A stretch of DNA of 32,000 nucleotides from Candidatus Saccharimonadota bacterium (GTDB lineage: Bacteria > Patescibacteriota > Microgenomatia > UBA1406 > GWC2-37-13), in NCBI GenBank assembly GCA_001790095.1, contig MGBH01000001.1:210001-242000 (forward strand). The letters are read 5' to 3'. The position numbers were made by a program, and so were the translations under genes. A model generated the notes under the pieces. It was not told where the DNA came from, did no database searches, and saw only the letters and a program-made list of their open reading frames with translations. This document shows, in pieces, positions 10,912 through 30,403 of the stretch. Numbering within the stretch: position 1 is the first letter of the stretch; the number at the start of each line of letters is the position of its first letter.

Positions 10912-12036
10912 ATGAAGCTGGTCCTCATTGGTATCCAAGGTTCTGGTAAATCGACACAGGGAAATATACTTTCACATTTATTTAAAATACCATATCTTTC
11001 AACGGGTCATATATTTAGAGAGATAGCAAAAGAAAAAACAACCCTTGGTCGGTATATGAAAGAAACTATCAATGCAGGAATACTTGTTCCCGACCACAAA
11101 ACAATTGAAATTGTAAATAGTTATTTATCACGTCCAGAATATAAGAGAGGATACATACTCGATGGTTTTCCACGAACTTTAAAGCAAGCTCATGAATTTT
11201 CCAACAATGTAGACAAAGTCGTGTATCTTCGAATTCCTGACAAGGAAGCATTGTGGAGACTTATGAATCGGCATCAAAATCGATCCGACGAGACACTCCC
11301 AGCATTGAAAAAACGCATAGAATTATTCCATAAGTTCACAGAACCTGTTGTTGAGTTTTATGAGAAACAAGGAAAGTTAATAGAGCTTGATGGAACTAAA
11401 TCGATACACGAAGTACAAAGGGAGATACTTGAGAATCTTGGTAAACAGTTGGTGAAAAATCAAATAAAAGAATGGAAACAAAAGAAAAAATCTATTATCG
11501 CACTTGTTGGTCTACCGGGAGCAGGAAAGAGCGAGGCTGCTTCTTATTTTATTAAAAAGAAGCTTCCTGTAATTAGCTTCGGCAAGATTATTAACGACTA
11601 TATCGATGAACACAAATTAGGACACACGGAAGAGGTACATAAAAAAGTAAGAGAAGAGTTACGAATCAAACATGGCAAAGAAGCACTGGCCGTATTGAAT
11701 GAAAAAAAGATTCAAGAATCATTCAAAAAAAACAACATTGTAATAATAGACGGGATGCGATCGTGGGAAGAATACTTATATTTAAAAAAGCACCTAAAAA
11801 AAATTCAAGTATACATCTTAGCTCTTCATGCAAGCAAACATCTGCGCTATGAACGTTCAGCAAAGCGAAATTACCGGGCAAAGCTGTTTGGAGAAGTTCG
11901 AGACATAAACGAACTTATTGGAACAAACATGGGACCGACCATTGCGTTTGCAGATTTTCTTATAAAGAACAACTTTTCTATTGATGATTTGCATGATAAA
12001 TTAGAAGAAGTGTATCGGCAGGTATATTTTTCTTAA
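10912..12036 (+). CDS. adk: Adenylate kinase (about residues 1-185) fused to a second P-loop nucleotide-kinase-like domain (about residues 191-374)
   Basis: N-terminal half: GIQGSGKSTQ, STGHIFRE, YILDGFPRT and a short lid without cysteines, as in Adk. C-terminal half: a second Walker A GLPGAGKS (11509-11532), then IIDGMRS and RYERSAKRNYR...VRD...IAFADFLIKNN. This half resembles small stand-alone kinases annotated as UPF0200 or CoaE-like. Confidence 0.85.
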   Translation: MKLVLIGIQGSGKSTQGNILSHLFKIPYLSTGHIFREIAKEKTTLGRYMKETINAGILVPDHKTIEIVNSYLSRPEYKRGYILDGFPRTLKQAHEFSNNVDKVVYLRIPDKEALWRLMNRHQNRSDETLPALKKRIELFHKFTEPVVEFYEKQGKLIELDGTKSIHEVQREILENLGKQLVKNQIKEWKQKKKSIIALVGLPGAGKSEAASYFIKKKLPVISFGKIINDYIDEHKLGHTEEVHKKVREELRIKHGKEALAVLNEKKIQESFKKNNIVIIDGMRSWEEYLYLKKHLKKIQVYILALHASKHLRYERSAKRNYRAKLFGEVRDINELIGTNMGPTIAFADFLIKNNFSIDDLHDKLEEVYRQVYFS

Positions 12037-17004: not shown

Positions 17005-17886
17005 ATGAAAGGTCTTTCTATCATAATTCCTTCCTTCAATACCAAAAAAATCACTAAGCAGTGTATTACCGCTTTAAATGGCGTACTACTCAACAATAAA
17101 ATACCGTATCAGATCATTGTTGTTGACAATTCTTCAACTGATGGTTCACAAATAATGCTTCAAGAAGTAAAAAATCCCCGCTTGTTTACTGTTTTTAACT
17201 CTGAAAACAAAGGCTATGGAAAGGCGAATAATCAAGGACTTAAGATAGCGTCTATGGACTATGTATTGTTTCTCAATTCTGATGTGTTAGTAGACAAACA
17301 GATGGACTTTTCAAAACTTATACATTTTTTTGAAACTCATGAAAAGATAGGGGGTTTAACAGTAAAGGTGAATTTAATAAACGGTTCAATTGATCCGGCC
17401 TCACATAGAGGATTCCCAACCCCATGGCGTTCGCTATGCTATTTTATTGGGTTTGAGCGCCTTTTCTCAAAAATACCAATTGTGAATCGTTTATTTGGAG
17501 GATATCATTTGGTTTTTCTTGATAAAAAGAGCACTCATGAAATTGATTCTCCAACAGGAGCTTTCTTTATGGTGTCACGATCATTACTTCAAGAGCTGCA
17601 TGGATTTGATGAGGACTTTTTCATGTATGGAGAAGACCTAGACCTATCCTTCAGAATAAAAGAAAAAGGTTATAAGATCATATATCTTCCCACCTTCCAA
17701 GTCCTGCATTATAAATACCAAAGCGGTTTACAGAATAAGAAAAACCAAGAGTTGCGAAAAAAAATAAGAAAAAGTTTTTACGAAGCCATGGCAACCTTTT
17801 ATAAAAAGCATTATGAAAGAGTGTATCCGCCAATAGTAAATAGATTTATTTATTTTTTGATTAGATTAAAAACAAATCAATTATGA
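17005..17886 (+). CDS. Family 2 glycosyltransferase (rhamnosyltransferase-like)
   Basis: LSIIIPSFNTKK, VVDNSSTDGS, FLNSDV, GAFFMVSR and FFMYGEDLDLSFR are GT2 (GT-A fold, DxD) motifs. Confidence 0.88.
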   Translation: MKGLSIIIPSFNTKKITKQCITALNGVLLNNKIPYQIIVVDNSSTDGSQIMLQEVKNPRLFTVFNSENKGYGKANNQGLKIASMDYVLFLNSDVLVDKQMDFSKLIHFFETHEKIGGLTVKVNLINGSIDPASHRGFPTPWRSLCYFIGFERLFSKIPIVNRLFGGYHLVFLDKKSTHEIDSPTGAFFMVSRSLLQELHGFDEDFFMYGEDLDLSFRIKEKGYKIIYLPTFQVLHYKYQSGLQNKKNQELRKKIRKSFYEAMATFYKKHYERVYPPIVNRFIYFLIRLKTNQL

Positions 17887-25619: not shown

Positions 25620-26093
25620 ATGCAAAGTACTACTAAAAAAAAGACGGTCATCATCGTTGGAGTCGTTGTCTTTATTATTATTGTCCTTTCGTTTATTTTA
25701 TTATCAAAAAACAAGAAAGAAGAAGTAAAGGAAAAAACAGGAGGAGTACTTATTCAAGAAGAAAACATTCTCCCAACCGTTGACTCATCGGTCAAGGTTG
25801 AATTTACCTCATCGTCAGAAGGTAAGGAAGCGATTTTAAGACTAAGCGGAATACCTTCAGGGACAGAATCAATCGATTATGAGCTTTCGTATCAAGAGGC
25901 ACAAAAAGGGTTACAAGGAGTAATTGGAACCATTATGCCAGACAACCAAACAGCCTATGAAAAAAAAATCACACTTGGAACTTGCTCATCGGGAAGATGT
26001 GTATACCATGAGATAATTGGAAAGGTGAAAGTTACCCTCAAATTTGTCGGCTCATACGGAGATAAAATCTATGAAAAAGAATATGACATCTAA
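25620..26093 (+). CDS. Hypothetical N-terminally anchored small exported protein
   Basis: KKKTVIIVGVVVFIIIVLSFILL is a signal anchor. About 110 aa of beta-rich sequence follow, with a Cys pair (CSSGRC). I recognise no family. Confidence 0.5.
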   Translation: MQSTTKKKTVIIVGVVVFIIIVLSFILLSKNKKEEVKEKTGGVLIQEENILPTVDSSVKVEFTSSSEGKEAILRLSGIPSGTESIDYELSYQEAQKGLQGVIGTIMPDNQTAYEKKITLGTCSSGRCVYHEIIGKVKVTLKFVGSYGDKIYEKEYDI

Positions 26094-26112
26094 TGAATGA
26101 TGCTATATACTT

Positions 26113-26165: not shown

Positions 26166-26420
26166 ATGCCAAATATTCGTTCTGCAAAGAAAAAGGTTCG
26201 AAAAGACATAAAACGAACAAAACACAACGTTTTTTATCGTGATGCAATAAAAAAAGCAATCACAATAATAACAAAATTAAAAGGCGGAGAAGGATCAGGA
26301 GAAAAAATCAAAAAAACAGTTTCACTTATTGATAAAGCAGCAAAGAAAAAAGTAATTCATAAGAACAAGGCTTCTCGTCTTAAATCAAGGGTTATGAAGT
26401 TGTCTGTAGCTAAAAAATGA
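26166..26420 (+). CDS. rpsT: 30S ribosomal protein S20
   Basis: MPNIRSAKKKVRKDIKRTKHNVFYRDAIKKAI...AAKKKVIHKNKASRLKSR is the S20 signature. Confidence 0.92.
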   Translation: MPNIRSAKKKVRKDIKRTKHNVFYRDAIKKAITIITKLKGGEGSGEKIKKTVSLIDKAAKKKVIHKNKASRLKSRVMKLSVAKK

Positions 26421-26944
26421 GATATCAGATCAACCTACTCCAAGAGAAAGAAAAAGACATATCTGGCAAGATGGTCTATTTTGCACTTCACTATTTGAGG
26501 TATATTCTTGTATTGACCCAAATTGTGGTTATTGCAGTTTTCTTTTACCGATTTAAGATTGATCAGGAAGTTATTGATCTACGGGATGAACTAAAACAGA
26601 AAGAAGAAATAGTTCAAGTTTCAGATCCGCTTCTTAAGGAAGCGCAGGGAGTGGATTTGAAGACCCGGGAGATAAAAGATGTGCTTATTAGGCAGGAGGC
26701 ATCTCAGCAGATGCTGACTTATTTTCTCAGTGTTTTTCCAAATAATATGCGAGTAACCAGGATTGATATGAGTGAAAAGGGGTTTGAATTTATTGGTATT
26801 ACTTCTGAGCCTCAAATAATCAAGATTTTTCTTGACAAACTTAATGCAGATAAAGCGTTTAAGACCATTGAGCTCGGAAGCATTCGTAGAGAAGACAACA
26901 GTTTTCATTGCCCATTTAAACTTTATGGATTTATACCAAAATAA
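26417..26944 (+). CDS. pilN: PilN-like bitopic membrane protein (type IV pilus alignment-complex family)
   Basis: The N-terminal MRYQINLL matches the conserved INLLP PilM-binding motif. It is followed by a single TM (ILVLTQIVVIAVFFY), a coiled-coil stretch and an alpha/beta C-terminal domain of about 90 aa, which is the PilN architecture and size. ATGA overlap with rpsT. Confidence 0.6.
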   Translation: MRYQINLLQEKEKDISGKMVYFALHYLRYILVLTQIVVIAVFFYRFKIDQEVIDLRDELKQKEEIVQVSDPLLKEAQGVDLKTREIKDVLIRQEASQQMLTYFLSVFPNNMRVTRIDMSEKGFEFIGITSEPQIIKIFLDKLNADKAFKTIELGSIRREDNSFHCPFKLYGFIPK

Positions 26945-26953
26945 TGTAAGGAT

Positions 26954-27532
26954 ATGGATAAAGAATCCCTCAAAAAAAGGTTAACGTCAAAGAAAGCGCA
27001 AGATTATAGCTATGCGATTATTTTTTTCTTGACATTTTCGTTTTTTATTTTTTTTGTAATTCGTCCAAACTTAGTAAACGTTTTTTCACTTCAAGAAGAG
27101 CTTGGAAGACTACGAATTCTTGATGCAGGATATGAAAATGTGATCAAAAAGATCATCAACATCCAAACATTTCTTGAGGTAAATAGAAGTGATTTATATC
27201 TTTTAGATCAATCAGTTTCATCCACCCCACAGATAAATAAGCTGATTGAGGATATTGAAGCTGCAGCAACAGAATCAGGTCTTATCGTCAATCAAATAAA
27301 CATAAGCAGAATTGATTTAAAAGAAAAGAATAAACGTGATAGTAAAAATACACTTATGGTAAACATAGCTACACGTACGGGGTTTGAAGAGACGAAAAAA
27401 TTTATGGATGATTTAATATCTCAACGAAGACTTAAAATGCTTAAAAGTGTCGTCTTTGAAAAGGAAGATAAATATGGGACTGGTAGCGGAGCTTTAAATA
27501 TAAAAATTGAACTAGAAGGATATTACCTATGA
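26954..27532 (+). CDS. pilO: PilO-like bitopic membrane protein
   Basis: Short cytoplasmic N-terminus, TM (YAIIFFLTFSFFIFFVI), coiled coil, then LDQSVSSTPQINKLIEDIEAAATESGLIVNQINI...IATRTGFEETKKFMDDLISQRRLKMLKSVVFEK. By eye this aligns with the P. aeruginosa PilO periplasmic domain. It lies directly after the PilN-like gene. Confidence 0.55.
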   Translation: MDKESLKKRLTSKKAQDYSYAIIFFLTFSFFIFFVIRPNLVNVFSLQEELGRLRILDAGYENVIKKIINIQTFLEVNRSDLYLLDQSVSSTPQINKLIEDIEAAATESGLIVNQINISRIDLKEKNKRDSKNTLMVNIATRTGFEETKKFMDDLISQRRLKMLKSVVFEKEDKYGTGSGALNIKIELEGYYL

Positions 27533-27714
27533 AAAAGATAGAGGTGCTTATACTTTCAGTAGCAATTTTCTTTACCATTATTGCATGGGTTATTATTGAC
27601 ATATATCATATCCAGCAAAAAATTAACGATCAAATTGATGTTAAACCAGCAACAATTCCCAATTATCAAATGGATCAGAAAATAATCGACGTTTTGAAGC
27701 AAAAAGTGGAGTAA
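27529..27714 (+). CDS. Small single-pass membrane protein
   Basis: 61 aa with the TM segment VLILSVAIFFTIIAWVIIDI. ATGA overlap with the PilO-like gene supports its being a real gene. Confidence 0.5.
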   Translation: MKKIEVLILSVAIFFTIIAWVIIDIYHIQQKINDQIDVKPATIPNYQMDQKIIDVLKQKVE

Positions 27715-27717
27715 GTT

Positions 27718-29088
27718 ATGATATACAGCAAACTATATTTACAAAGAAAAACGAGTCTTTTACCCGCCGTTTTGGTAATGGGTGTATTGTTTATTGCCAC
27801 TCTATTTATTTTCTACACAAAAAAATCAGCCCATGTCACGTCGATCACAAAGACGCCCTTAATAAAGAAAGAACTTGTGAATCTGTCTTCAAATCAAGCA
27901 GGAATATATTGGGAATCAAAGGATAAGGAAGAGGGATGGATCCAATTTGGGGAGAAAGGTGAAGATGTTAGTACCAATGCTTATGATGACAGAGATCTAT
28001 CACCTAATTTACAAAAATATACCCATCACTACGTAGCATTAAAGAACTTGAAGGAAGATAAAAACTATTATTTTAGAATAATGAACAAAAGGGGAGCTTA
28101 TGTTGACAAGGATATGAATATCTTTCATTTTAAAACACCAAAAAAAGAAACGCAAAGATATAGTGGCAAACCTGCATATGGTAAAGTTTTAATGGCCAAC
28201 GGCAAGCCTAGGGAGAATATCCTCGTTTTACTTACAATAGAGGGAAAAATTCCCCTACTCGCTCTATCAAAATCAACAGGGGAATGGCTGCTGCCCTTAA
28301 ATAGCATAATTGAAAAAACAACGGGTAAAACAGTATATGACATATCAAGCAACACAAGAACCAATATTGAGTTTATAGAAGAGAGGGGAAGTAGTTCTCA
28401 TGTAGTTACTTTTTTAGCGAATATAAACCCCATGGCACAAACAATCATTTTAGGTAGAAACTACAGCCTTCTTGCCCAACAACAAGGTCAAGGAGATGTA
28501 TTGTCAGTATCAACAGGAAAAAAAATTGAATCAAAATCAACAGTGGCTATCGTTTATCCACGAGAAAATGCCATAATACCGGCTCTAAGGCCTCTTATTA
28601 AGGGTCAAGGATTACCTGGTAGTGATGTTACTGCTTTTATTAACTCAAGTCCTCAATTTACGTTCCGAACAAAAGTTGATAAGGTGGGAGAATGGAGGAT
28701 TTTACCAACAGATCCCATCTCACCAGGTTCATATGTCTTGACGATTACGTCAAAAGATGAAACGGGAGCAAAGATAACCATAAAACGAAATTTTATTATC
28801 GCTAAAAGCGGTGAGCAAGTTTTGGGGTTAGCCACAGGAGAACCGACACTACCTCCTCCAACAACTACTCCTACACGATCTATCTCAGCTACTCCCGTTC
28901 CCACGCTTATTGTTTTTAACCCGACTCCAACATTGCACCCAACGCTTTTTCAGCCAACAAGTCAACCCCAATATCCCATAACAACACCAACAAACACACC
29001 GCCTCGTACTGGAGGAAGCTTAACTGGCCTTCTTTTTGCCAGTCTCATCCTACTATTTGTTGGAGGAGGGTTAATGCTTGTTTTTTAA
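27718..29088 (+). CDS. Large surface protein: N-terminal anchor, FN3-like and Ig-like beta domains, Pro/Thr-rich stalk, C-terminal PPRTGG plus hydrophobic segment
   Basis: N-terminal TM (LLPAVLVMGVLFIATLFIF). The FN3-like pattern is AGIYWESKDKEEGWIQFGE...HHYVALKNLKEDKNYYFRI. The Ig-like segment is VAIVYPRENA...GEWRILPTDPISPGSYVLTITSKD. The PT-rich stretch is GEPTLPPPTTTPT...PTPT, and the C-terminus is TPPRTGGSLTGLLFASLILLFVGGGLMLVF. Confidence 0.6.
   Translation: MIYSKLYLQRKTSLLPAVLVMGVLFIATLFIFYTKKSAHVTSITKTPLIKKELVNLSSNQAGIYWESKDKEEGWIQFGEKGEDVSTNAYDDRDLSPNLQKYTHHYVALKNLKEDKNYYFRIMNKRGAYVDKDMNIFHFKTPKKETQRYSGKPAYGKVLMANGKPRENILVLLTIEGKIPLLALSKSTGEWLLPLNSIIEKTTGKTVYDISSNTRTNIEFIEERGSSSHVVTFLANINPMAQTIILGRNYSLLAQQQGQGDVLSVSTGKKIESKSTVAIVYPRENAIIPALRPLIKGQGLPGSDVTAFINSSPQFTFRTKVDKVGEWRILPTDPISPGSYVLTITSKDETGAKITIKRNFIIAKSGEQVLGLATGEPTLPPPTTTPTRSISATPVPTLIVFNPTPTLHPTLFQPTSQPQYPITTPTNTPPRTGGSLTGLLFASLILLFVGGGLMLVF
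28900..28932 (+). repeat. Copy 1 of a shared 33-nt module encoding PTLIVFNPTPT
   Basis: cccacgcttattgtttttaacccgactccaaca matches 30152-30184 at 27 of 33 positions, by my hand alignment. Confidence 0.7.
28999..29085 (+). other. Sortase-like C-terminal sorting signal (variant PPRTG-G plus TM, no basic tail)
   Basis: The codons ccg cct cgt act gga gga at 28999-29016 encode PPRTGG. A further 24 mostly hydrophobic residues follow up to the stop codon. Confidence 0.4.
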
Positions 29089-29112
29089 CACGCTTTTTGA
29101 TTAAATGAATGT

Positions 29113-29784
29113 ATGGGGGGAGTAATAGATTTTTTTCTTTCAGTAAACAAAATAAGCTTATTTGCCTTTTTGGGCGTGTTTGGTTTTTTGGTTTATGAAG
29201 TATATCTTCTTCGAAGAGAACATTTAAAAAAGCAAAAACCAGTCCTACCCCAGTTTAATACTAGTACTGTTGTTGATAAGACCGTCATTCAACAACAGGC
29301 TGTATCCCTTAGTCCACCAAAAAAAGCAGATATTGAAAAACATACCAAATCACCGATTTTTTTGATCATTTTACTTATTTGTATGATTATATTTTTTCTT
29401 GGGTTTACCATATATACTGTTTTTATAGGCAAAACCGTAAAAGGGACGCCTGAAATCACGCCGAAGGTTATAATACAGGAAATCTCGTCACCAGGTTTAA
29501 AAGTATTTGATAGCAATTGGGTTGAAATCAATGAGAAAGATACGAAAGAGCAACTAAACCCAGGAGAGAGAATTTACATTGGAATAAGTACGATTGAGGA
29601 AGCGGATATAGATCGCGCCAGGATAAGAGTAAATGAAAAATCATGGAATATATCGCACATTACAGACAAACTCAACAAAGAAAAAAAACTATATTATAAG
29701 GAATATATTATTGCAACAGGAGAATCTAAATTAACAATTGACGCCCAACTTCATTCAAAAATTGATGGTTGGTTGGGAGATTGA
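29113..29784 (+). CDS. Hypothetical two-pass membrane protein with a C-terminal extracytoplasmic domain
   Basis: The TM segments are ISLFAFLGVFGFLVYEVYLL and IFLIILLICMIIFFLGFTIYTVFI. A beta-rich domain of about 110 aa follows. Tightly packed in the operon. I recognise no family. Confidence 0.5.
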   Translation: MGGVIDFFLSVNKISLFAFLGVFGFLVYEVYLLRREHLKKQKPVLPQFNTSTVVDKTVIQQQAVSLSPPKKADIEKHTKSPIFLIILLICMIIFFLGFTIYTVFIGKTVKGTPEITPKVIIQEISSPGLKVFDSNWVEINEKDTKEQLNPGERIYIGISTIEEADIDRARIRVNEKSWNISHITDKLNKEKKLYYKEYIIATGESKLTIDAQLHSKIDGWLGD

Positions 29785-29785
29785 T

Positions 29786-30403
29786 ATGAAAAAAAAGAAG
29801 ATAGGAACGATATTAATATTAGTCATGACGATGAGTATTTTTGGAGCAATAATCTATCTTAGTATGCTTTTGAGCAATAAAGGAGAAAAATCAGTGACTC
29901 AGATAAAAAAAACCAAAGCAAGCGCACAGACATATCACAAACTGCTTGCTCTCAACGTTACACCACCTGATTTAACTGATCATTCTGCCCCAACAGTCAT
30001 TCCAGACTCTGTTACATCAACTGGAATAACTTCTATCCCAACCCCGCAATCACCCTCACCAAAGGTCCCATACGTGCAAACGACACTACAACCATCAGTT
30101 ACTGTTCCTACGACTACCCCTGTTACTATGCCGTCTCCAACCCGACCGGCGCCCACGCTTGTGGTATTTACTCCAACTCCAACAACAATGCTTCTTGCTT
30201 ATCGTACCATGACGATAACGCCCACTCTCATACCGTCTCGTAACACAGGGGGTGAAGAGCAAAAAAAAAGCATATCACCAACATTTCAACCAACCAGGGG
30301 AGCGCCCATTGAAAACAAACTTCCGGAGACAGGATGGGTACAATTAAGCACGATCCTATTTATAGTAGCCGTGACAACAATCTTCTTATCCTTCTTATTT
30401 TGA
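29786..30403 (+). CDS. Pro/Thr-rich surface protein with a canonical LPETG plus hydrophobic C-terminus
   Basis: MKKKKIGTILILVMTMSIFGAIIYLSMLL is a signal or anchor sequence. A long P/T/S-rich region follows, and the protein ends ...NKLPETGWVQLSTILFIVAVTTIFLSFLF. I chose the ATG at 29786, 1 nt after the upstream stop codon. Confidence 0.6.
   Translation: MKKKKIGTILILVMTMSIFGAIIYLSMLLSNKGEKSVTQIKKTKASAQTYHKLLALNVTPPDLTDHSAPTVIPDSVTSTGITSIPTPQSPSPKVPYVQTTLQPSVTVPTTTPVTMPSPTRPAPTLVVFTPTPTTMLLAYRTMTITPTLIPSRNTGGEEQKKSISPTFQPTRGAPIENKLPETGWVQLSTILFIVAVTTIFLSFLF
30152..30184 (+). repeat. Copy 2 of the shared 33-nt module encoding PTLVVFTPTPT
   Basis: cccacgcttgtggtatttactccaactccaaca matches 28900-28932 at 27 of 33 positions. 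Confidence 0.7.
30320..30400 (+). other. LPXTG-type sorting signal (LPETG plus TM, no basic tail)
   Basis: The codons ctt ccg gag aca gga at 30320-30334 encode LPETG. A further 22 mostly hydrophobic residues follow up to the stop codon. Confidence 0.55.

Follow-up and report, generated by a model that had tools for sequence, protein, structure and literature searches.

A tightly packed block of genes, which begins with rpsT and continues with homologues of pilN and pilO, is found in a 32,000-nucleotide stretch of DNA from Candidatus Saccharimonadota bacterium (assembly GCA_001790095.1, contig MGBH01000001.1, positions 210,001 to 242,000; hereafter the window). Our analysis suggests, with a probability of about 0.58, that we have here the PilN-PilO alignment subcomplex of a type IV pilus (T4P) whose other parts are encoded elsewhere, and that this subcomplex shares an operon with lineage-specific envelope partners, together with which it would act as a connector from membrane to wall in the absence of PilP and PilQ. 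The PilN and PilO families, sortase, and the occurrence of T4P in the Candidate Phyla Radiation (CPR) are already known; literature searches yielded no description of a split-off pilNO unit with two partner families and sortase-type signals across Roizmanbacteria, Gottesmanbacteria, and their relatives. The block was picked out in a preliminary description of the window, and its seven open reading frames (ORFs), their coordinates, and all their spacings are exactly as given there.

The first two proteins after rpsT are bitopic membrane proteins of the canonical PilN and PilO families. The homology, proposed in the preliminary description, is borne out by Pfam, by profiles against the PDB, and by a fold match with Pseudomonas aeruginosa PilO. 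When PilN of the window is compared with Pfam PilN (PF05137), the score is 20.2 bits (E = 6e-4), which is just under the gathering score of 22.8, and the same family is matched by 16 of 17 orthologues or family members, at best with E = 2e-11. The sole match in a PDB profile search with PilN was Myxococcus xanthus PilN, and it was weak (E = 1.1), while a PDB search with the 56 N-terminal residues gave no match. The protein has a cytoplasmic N-terminus with the sequence MRYQINLL, one transmembrane (TM) segment at residues 30-48, and an external part with a coiled coil and a ferredoxin-like domain. The consensus of the N-terminal motif by which PilN binds PilM is INLLP. In the present family the start reads M-K-Y-K-I-N-L-L-P, and 72 of 75 distinct homologues have [ILV]NL[LFIM] at residues 5-8; in Gottesmanbacteria the motif reads INLI or INLL. 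A passage in PMC5805733, which cites Karuppiah & Derrick 2011 and McCallum 2016, states that PilM binds a highly conserved motif at the N-terminus of PilN.

PilO scores above the gathering score of its Pfam family (PF04350; 27.3 bits against 22), and a profile made from 16 homologues finds M. xanthus PilO (E = 2.8e-4) and P. aeruginosa PilO (E = 0.9) in the PDB. The protein starts with a basic cytoplasmic N-terminus, crosses the membrane once, and continues in a long helix, after which comes a core with two alpha-beta-beta units. In an AlphaFold2 model based on 62 sequences, the long helix extends over residues 3-76, further helices are placed at 94-108 and 144-155, and strands at 112-120, 133-142, 161-170, and 181-190. 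The top Foldseek matches of this model are P. aeruginosa PilO (2rjz, E = 3.9e-5; 5uvr), M. xanthus PilO (3jc8_O), the PilO-like protein Amuc_1100, and PulM. The sequence RRLK (residues 158-161) is invariant and stands between helix 2 and the next strand, where PilO of P. aeruginosa has its best-conserved motif (PMC5805733). Homologues of this protein have already been named PilO by JGI and NCBI.

The remainder of a pilus machine is missing from the neighbourhood. PilM, PilB/T, PilC, PilD, and pilin genes are absent within ±10 kb in every annotated locus, and neither a prepilin signal of the G/FTLIE type nor the PilB/T Walker A sequence GPTGSGKT occurs in the 7575 ORFs of the 105 loci, which supports the earlier statement that further pilus genes and class III signals are lacking. 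There is no relative among the loci examined, some 100 of them together with outgroups, in which the block lies inside a canonical T4P operon. One locus, L105, has a 106-aa ORF annotated as Pfam T4SS_pilin (PF18895) about 5 kb downstream of the block (17032-17352, minus strand). T4P genes, those for PilM, PilN, and PilO included, are widespread and enriched in the CPR (PMC6744442, PMC8672522, PMC12206443), and T4P genes are common in Microgenomates as well (PMC6744442, PMC7143001, PMC8672522). In the complete Microgenomates genome Ch65, the single T4P locus lists PilA, minor pilins, and PilD, PilB, PilT, PilC, and PilM, with PilN and PilO unnamed (PMC7143001), which fits a split arrangement in Microgenomates.

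The neighbourhood of the block is conserved. About 100 Roizmanbacteria loci, taken from genomes and metagenomes, all have the core order rpsT-pilN-pilO-61aa-~450aa, and their full order is DUF4012-recO-glyS-157aa-rpsT-pilN-pilO-61aa-~450aa-(223aa)-(PT-rich)-tpiA(-), with the genes in parentheses variable and PT-rich denoting a Pro/Thr-rich protein. The genes are real, and their order recurs in about 100 independent loci. The median identity to the proteins of the window is 35-40% for PilN, PilO, and the 61-aa and ~450-aa proteins, which is the same as for recO and tpiA. A PilO profile search gave as its best 120 matches only members of the same clade, and a contig scan then yielded at least 13 loci; outgroups were reached by an exhaustive profile search of representatives, the best 150 of whose 2485 matches extend to Gottesmanbacteria. 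To exemplify the outgroups, consider the Gottesmanbacteria loci L021-L023 together with L105. Their upstream context is different (dnaK operon, GH39, and murJ on the opposite strand), they keep rpsT-pilN-pilO-64aa-~410-460aa, and downstream they have either different surface proteins, some of which end in VPV(S/A)G and a TM segment, or none, followed by a LytR-CpsA-Psr (LCP) gene, tpiA, and uvrD. Intermediate arrangements are seen in L024, L106, and L108. Since the outgroups retain the core only, the conserved unit consists of the pilN, pilO, 61-aa, and ~450-aa genes with rpsT upstream. Of the seven-gene module that had been proposed earlier, only these four genes with rpsT are conserved beyond Roizmanbacteria; those for the two-pass and PT-rich proteins vary or are missing.

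The 61-aa gene is present in all loci including the outgroups, with a length of 61-64 aa except in L024, where it is 133 aa, and its product matches no known family in Pfam or NCBIfam. In 90 of 94 loci the pilO and 61-aa genes keep their ATGA overlap, and judged from it they are probably translationally coupled. The ~450-aa gene always follows directly, mostly with a gap of -4 to 6 nt. In the window its product has 456 residues: a conserved short N-terminal tail and a TM helix (15-34) are followed by three beta-sandwich domains, which are FN3-like (50-140), CarboxypepD_reg-like (153-250), and Big_13 Ig-like (277-361), and then by a disordered Pro/Thr linker (about 367-420), the sequence PPRTG, and a C-terminal TM helix (436-455). 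The three domains come from an AlphaFold2 model with a mean predicted local distance difference test (pLDDT) of 83, and Pfam finds Pur_ac_phosph_N (FN3-like) and Big_13 in the same protein, which agrees with the multidomain FN3/Ig-like character that was first assigned to it. Precomputed Pfam matches of its homologues are PF13620, PF19077, and PF16656, and the 50 Foldseek matches listed for the model contain generic FN3 and adhesin-extender repeats only. Directly after the last Ig-like domain, where the model turns disordered, stands the sequence KSGEQVLG (residues 363-370; 28804-28827). Its K, G, E, and V are invariant among 66 homologues and its Q, L, and final G are conserved to at least 90%; the form in Gottesmanbacteria is KSGTQVLG, and the motif is absent from the other protein families of the loci. 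The motif may serve for docking, as a strand, or mark a site of processing.

Signals of the type xPx(T/S)G followed by a TM segment are confined to genes downstream of pilO. The motif comes after a linker rich in Pro and Thr and stands 5-12 residues ahead of the hydrophobic segment at the C-terminus. It has the form LP[EDQK]xG in 37 of 38 members of the PT-rich last-gene family, a PPx(T/S)G-type form in 84 of 105 homologous ORFs of the ~450-aa family, and the form LPxTG in 13 of 67 members of the 223-aa family, namely in fused variants. Among all other ORFs of the loci, any such signal is found in 13 of 6639, nearly all of them short ORFs directly after the ~450-aa gene. The preliminary description had both large proteins end in sortase-type signals; this holds for the last gene, with its LPETG, and has to be modified for the 456-aa protein, whose family carries PPx(T/S)G, and for the signals in general, all of which are without a basic tail.

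A sortase of 246 aa is encoded 8.2 kb downstream of the block, beyond the end of the window (about 38.6-39.3 kb; L107 1719-2459), with five unrelated genes in between. It scores 88.5 bits with Pfam Sortase and 63.6 with TIGR01076 (cutoff 39.35), and it has the catalytic His in FGHS, the Cys in TLITC, and the catalytic Arg. The class-specific NCBIfam model that fits it best is class C, at 70 bits, which is far under the cutoff of 160. Its gene lies between those for a membrane protein of 689 aa and a penicillin-binding protein of class A, and this position is kept in 8 relatives. A sortase is reported to be nearly ubiquitous in Microgenomates (PMC6744442). The trio of 689-aa protein, sortase, and penicillin-binding protein (Transgly and Transpeptidase domains) spans L107 1-4539 (about 36.5-41 kb, or 6-10 kb downstream). 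The 689-aa protein, the gene of which adjoins the sortase gene in 8 relatives, consists of a cytoplasmic N-terminal domain (about 300 aa), a single TM segment, and an external domain that matches Baseplate_J marginally (21.6 bits). By eye its N-terminal domain was suspected to be actin-like, as in PilM or FtsA, and this was dropped when Pfam, NCBIfam, a PDB phmmer search, and a PDB profile all gave no support.

How the proteins might work together can be pictured as follows. The INLL tail of PilN would recruit PilM, and PilN/PilO heterodimers would form a membrane-proximal cage around the base of the pilus. The 61-aa protein, made in stoichiometric amounts with PilO, would join this cage, and the N-terminus of the ~450-aa protein would be held in the membrane beside it. 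When the C-terminal signal of the ~450-aa protein is processed by sortase, the Pro/Thr stalk would become linked to peptidoglycan. In a cell that lacks both an outer membrane and PilP-PilQ, the machine would thereby be fastened to the wall, and the stalk would take over functionally from the connection that PilP and the secretin provide. The variable downstream LPXTG proteins could then be fast-evolving, wall-anchored, adhesin-like surface proteins made from the same unit, and rpsT could be a co-transcribed housekeeping neighbour, probably the source of a strong promoter. A more specific version, in which PilN-PilO, the 61-aa protein, and the stalk with its sortase-type signal constitute an unrecognised wall-spanning connector, a monoderm or CPR replacement of PilP-PilQ that is fixed covalently to peptidoglycan by sortase, we put forward tentatively, as a possibility that we are inclined to doubt.

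Several points weigh against a pilus subcomplex with wall-anchored partners. The contact between PilNO and the downstream proteins is one that we infer. PilM, PilB, PilC, PilD, and pilins are missing from the whole of the approximately 52 kb that were read around the window. The confidence of the PilO model is low, with a pLDDT of 66 overall and about 50-65 in the core. The region from DUF4012, recO, and glyS to tpiA and uvrD is syntenic throughout Roizmanbacteria, from which it follows that gene order within the clade is weak evidence of functional coupling; rpsT and tpiA-uvrD flank the block in the outgroups too, and for the ~450-aa gene a long-standing synteny without functional coupling is possible. 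The 456-aa protein carries the variant PPRTG instead of LPXTG, and not one of the signals has a positively charged tail after the hydrophobic segment, which ends in ...LMLVF or ...FLSFLF. The signals could be plain C-terminal membrane anchors, a role that has been suggested for Pam proteins in other members of the CPR (10.64898/2026.03.03.709456).

The preliminary description envisaged a pilus-independent envelope apparatus, in which a scaffold of the PilN/PilO type, combined with the 61-aa protein and the stalk protein with its sortase-type signal, would have been turned into a stand-alone complex that attaches or anchors the surface proteins of an episymbiont. Such an apparatus would account well for a block that stands apart in every case and has conserved partners of its own, for the lack of any T4P gene within ±10 kb in all 105 loci, and for sorting-signal proteins that are confined to the block. 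It is difficult to reconcile with the strong conservation of the PilM-binding-type motif of PilN (72/75), which is hard to explain when there is no PilM to bind, with the nearly universal occurrence of T4P genes in the CPR (PMC6744442, PMC8672522), and with a Microgenomates pilus locus that lists PilM and leaves PilN and PilO unnamed (PMC7143001), as expected for a split system. It is the docking motif and the Ch65 locus that make a detached alignment subcomplex of a T4P the likelier of the two, and we consider the independent apparatus unlikely, although it is the strongest competitor.

The genes could also be neighbours without being coupled, so that pilN and pilO serve the pilus and the 61-aa, ~450-aa, 223-aa, and PT-rich proteins are unrelated surface proteins encoded in a compact region of a streamlined genome whose synteny is ancient. 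The synteny from DUF4012 to uvrD reaches well past the block in all Roizmanbacteria loci, outgroups share the rpsT and tpiA-uvrD flanks, the genes after the ~450-aa gene vary, and rpsT, which is unrelated, is packed just as tightly against pilN, all of which would be natural for mere juxtaposition. What makes it quite unlikely in our judgement is that the ATGA overlap of pilO and the 61-aa gene and the short gap to the ~450-aa gene are so regularly kept, that lineages with another upstream context and other downstream genes still have the four genes side by side, and that their divergence equals that of the housekeeping neighbours. A very improbable alternative, finally, is a hybrid or sortase-assembled fibre, in which xPxTG beta-sandwich proteins are polymerised or anchored by sortase and PilNO organises the site of assembly. 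Class C, the best class-specific match of the sortase, is the pilin-polymerising class, and the score stays far below its cutoff; the stalk has the CnaB/CarboxypepD_reg-like and Ig-like domains that are typical of such pilins, but its N-terminal TM anchor is conserved and apparently uncleaved, unlike that of secreted pilins. PPx(T/S)G and LPxTG do form two distinct motif classes, each of them conserved, but the sortase gene lies 8 kb off behind unrelated genes, and no pilin motif or isopeptide signature turned up, the pilin motif not having been searched for specifically. We know of no precedent for PilNO in the assembly of sortase-dependent pili.

T4P are thought to be central to the attachment of CPR (Patescibacteria) cells to host cells and to their life on them, and the block is a concrete candidate for the means by which a T4P machine is held in the wall of a cell without outer membrane or secretin. 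In several candidate phyla of Microgenomatia, the conserved four-gene unit ties PilN/PilO, through probable translational coupling, to a small membrane protein and to a stalk protein that would reach from membrane to wall and has a sortase-type signal. Should the link prove physical, we would have the first case known to us of sortase anchoring within a T4P machine, and a function for three protein families that so far have none; if the connector is real, T4P and sortase anchoring, which are regarded as separate in Gram-positive bacteria, would be directly coupled. Without a physical link, what is left is an unusual but harmless split of pilNO from pilM. Inventories of Microgenomates pili that are limited to the main pilus locus will miss PilN and PilO.

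In the window, ribosomal-protein operons with secY, adk, map, and rpoA are followed by a glycosyltransferase cluster, DUF4012, recO, and glyS, and then by the rpsT-pilNO block, the features of which are collected in the table. By hydropathy, PilN, PilO, and the 61-aa protein have one TM segment each, the 456-aa and PT-rich proteins have N- and C-terminal TM segments, and the 223-aa protein has two.

Features of the rpsT-pilNO block and of the region directly upstream, in positions of the window; a negative distance is an overlap.
Feature	Position	Strand	Evidence or remark	Distance to next gene (nt)
157-aa bitopic protein gene (up150)	25620..26093	+	N-terminal TM and ~110-aa domain; conserved GTCSSGRCVYHE motif (Cys pair)	
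Promoter-like site ATGACA-17-TATACT	26083..26111	+	in the 72-nt gap 5' of rpsT; possible operon promoter	
rpsT (ribosomal protein S20)	26166..26420	+	Pfam S20p, 64 bits; TIGR00029, 69 bits	-4 (ATGA)
pilN homologue	26417..26944	+	Pfam PilN, INLL motif, bitopic topology	9
pilO homologue	26954..27532	+	Pfam PilO, PDB profile, Foldseek	-4 (ATGA)
61-aa single-pass membrane protein gene	27529..27714	+	hydropathy; present in all loci	3
456-aa envelope stalk protein gene	27718..29088	+	AlphaFold2, Pfam	24
223-aa two-pass membrane protein gene	29113..29784	+	hydropathy, alignment	1
205-aa PT-rich surface protein gene	29786..30403	+	LPETG and C-terminal TM	

The gene rpsT stands directly 5' of pilN in every locus, outgroups included. 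In the preliminary description it was counted as part of the module; the linkage is one of adjacency, and rpsT is probably an operon neighbour and nothing else, with no sign of a ribosomal function for the block. Promoter and terminator scans gave no more sites in the region than in shuffled sequence, which makes the promoter evidence weak. Rfam and tRNA scans of the window gave no matches.

The 157-aa gene precedes rpsT in all loci of the Roizmanbacteria type and in L024, L106, and L108; Gottesmanbacteria and L105 lack it and have murJ, on the minus strand, upstream. Its product, which matches no Pfam or NCBIfam family, is possibly linked to the block, though outside the core. Further upstream, between secY and map, the adk ORF (10912-12036, plus strand, 374 aa) encodes a fusion of ADK (residues 5-154) with another domain that resembles P-loop kinases, AAA_18 (196-324).

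The 223-aa and PT-rich genes are lineage-specific additions, which in some species are fused into one gene. The 223-aa protein has a first TM segment, a basic loop with a conserved KPxxPQF, a second TM segment, and an external domain of about 110 aa that ends in AQLHSxxDGWLGD; its gene occurs in many but not all Roizmanbacteria loci and is absent from the outgroups. Pfam has no match for this family or for the variable outgroup proteins. The PT-rich protein begins with a hydrophobic stretch, either an anchor or a signal, continues in a body rich in Pro and Thr, and closes with LPETG and a TM segment whose last residues are FLSFLF. The presence of its gene varies between loci; the gene starts with an ATG that has a GGAG Shine-Dalgarno sequence, with alternative starts at 29738 (TTG) and 29765. 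In several species a domain swap is seen between these last two genes (29113-30403 in the window; L003 12056-12757, L012 12045-12680, L014, L018, L020). The two TM segments and the KPxxPQF loop of the 223-aa family are then kept, a PT-rich stretch with LPxTG and a TM segment stands in place of the globular domain at the C-terminus, and the separate PT-rich gene is absent downstream.

At the end of the block in the window, the last 9 nt of the PT-rich gene (30395-30403) are shared with the 3' end of tpiA, which runs convergently, and no terminator-like hairpin was found at this overlap. In outgroups, a minus-strand gene for an LCP ligase, which joins glycopolymers to the wall, lies between the block and tpiA (L021 14655-15638, L023 14672-15688), as it does in L024 (12470-13510), L105 (12330-13355), and L106 (12276-13289). 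FemAB-family and MurJ genes also flank the outgroup region, the neighbourhood of which is generally one of cell-wall genes. Records of several GTDB representative MAGs with a locus of the Roizmanbacteria type (L008, L011, L013, L016, L017, L020) are titled 'uncultured Gammaproteobacteria bacterium' and are evidently mislabelled.

Among known systems, the Pam pilus of the CPR shares with the block envelope proteins that have Ig-like or FnIII domains and C-terminal TM helices (PamC, PamD, PamR), and Pam homologues are reported from Microgenomatia, one Roizmanbacteria protein included (10.64898/2026.03.03.709456). The Pam operon encodes donor-strand pilins and PapD/FimC-like chaperones, stands beside ATP synthase, CorB, and MFS genes, and is without PilN/PilO. 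That the block is a Pam operon was rejected, since its neighbourhood has none of the Pam-context genes and the folds, compared by description, differ; PapD/FimC-type chaperones were absent among the 50 Foldseek matches listed for the 456-aa model.

With the anchoring of LPXTG proteins by sortase in Gram-positive bacteria, the block has in common the xPx(T/S)G motif before a hydrophobic C-terminus, the Pro/Thr wall-spanning linker, and a sortase in the genome. A variant of the sorting signal of the form (S/P)PXTG is used in Clostridioides difficile. The stalk protein differs from the usual substrates in that it keeps a conserved N-terminal TM segment and has no obvious cleavable signal peptide, and to our knowledge no sortase substrate has been linked to PilN/PilO.

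The CPR T4P loci (TM7x loci 1 and 2; Ch65) are, like the system considered here, of the monoderm type without secretin. In Saccharibacteria TM7x, pilM-pilN-pilO lie inside complete loci with pilB, pilC, pilT, pilD, and pilins (PMC12206443), whereas here pilNO is split off. There is also a close likeness to PilMNOP(Q) of type IVa pili in P. aeruginosa, M. xanthus, and Thermus thermophilus. In both cases PilN and PilO are bitopic paralogues encoded side by side, PilN carries the N-terminal motif of the INLL(P) type, two alpha-beta-beta units make up the core of PilO, a conserved Arg-containing motif stands after its helix 2, and pilO is followed by the gene for a beta-sandwich envelope protein, PilP there and the ~450-aa protein here. 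In contrast to PilMNOP(Q), pilM is not adjacent, PilP and PilQ are lacking, with the 61-aa TM protein and the tri-domain ~450-aa protein present instead, and the block is preceded by rpsT and is far from pilus ATPase, platform, or pilin genes.

A type II secretion or competence pseudopilus cluster was rejected as an explanation, with no ATPase, platform, or pseudopilin genes in the block; nor, unlike in type II secretion, is there a fused actin-like domain of the GspL type, a secretin, GspE/F, or a pseudopilin nearby. The block has a likeness to GspL-GspM-GspC all the same. GspM is a homologue of PilO, PulM is among the fold matches of PilO, and GspC joins the L/M platform to the outer layer by means of an inner-membrane anchor and a beta-sandwich HR domain. 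By analogy, the ~450-aa protein may do for PilNO what GspC does for the L/M platform, and lead from the membrane outward to the wall.

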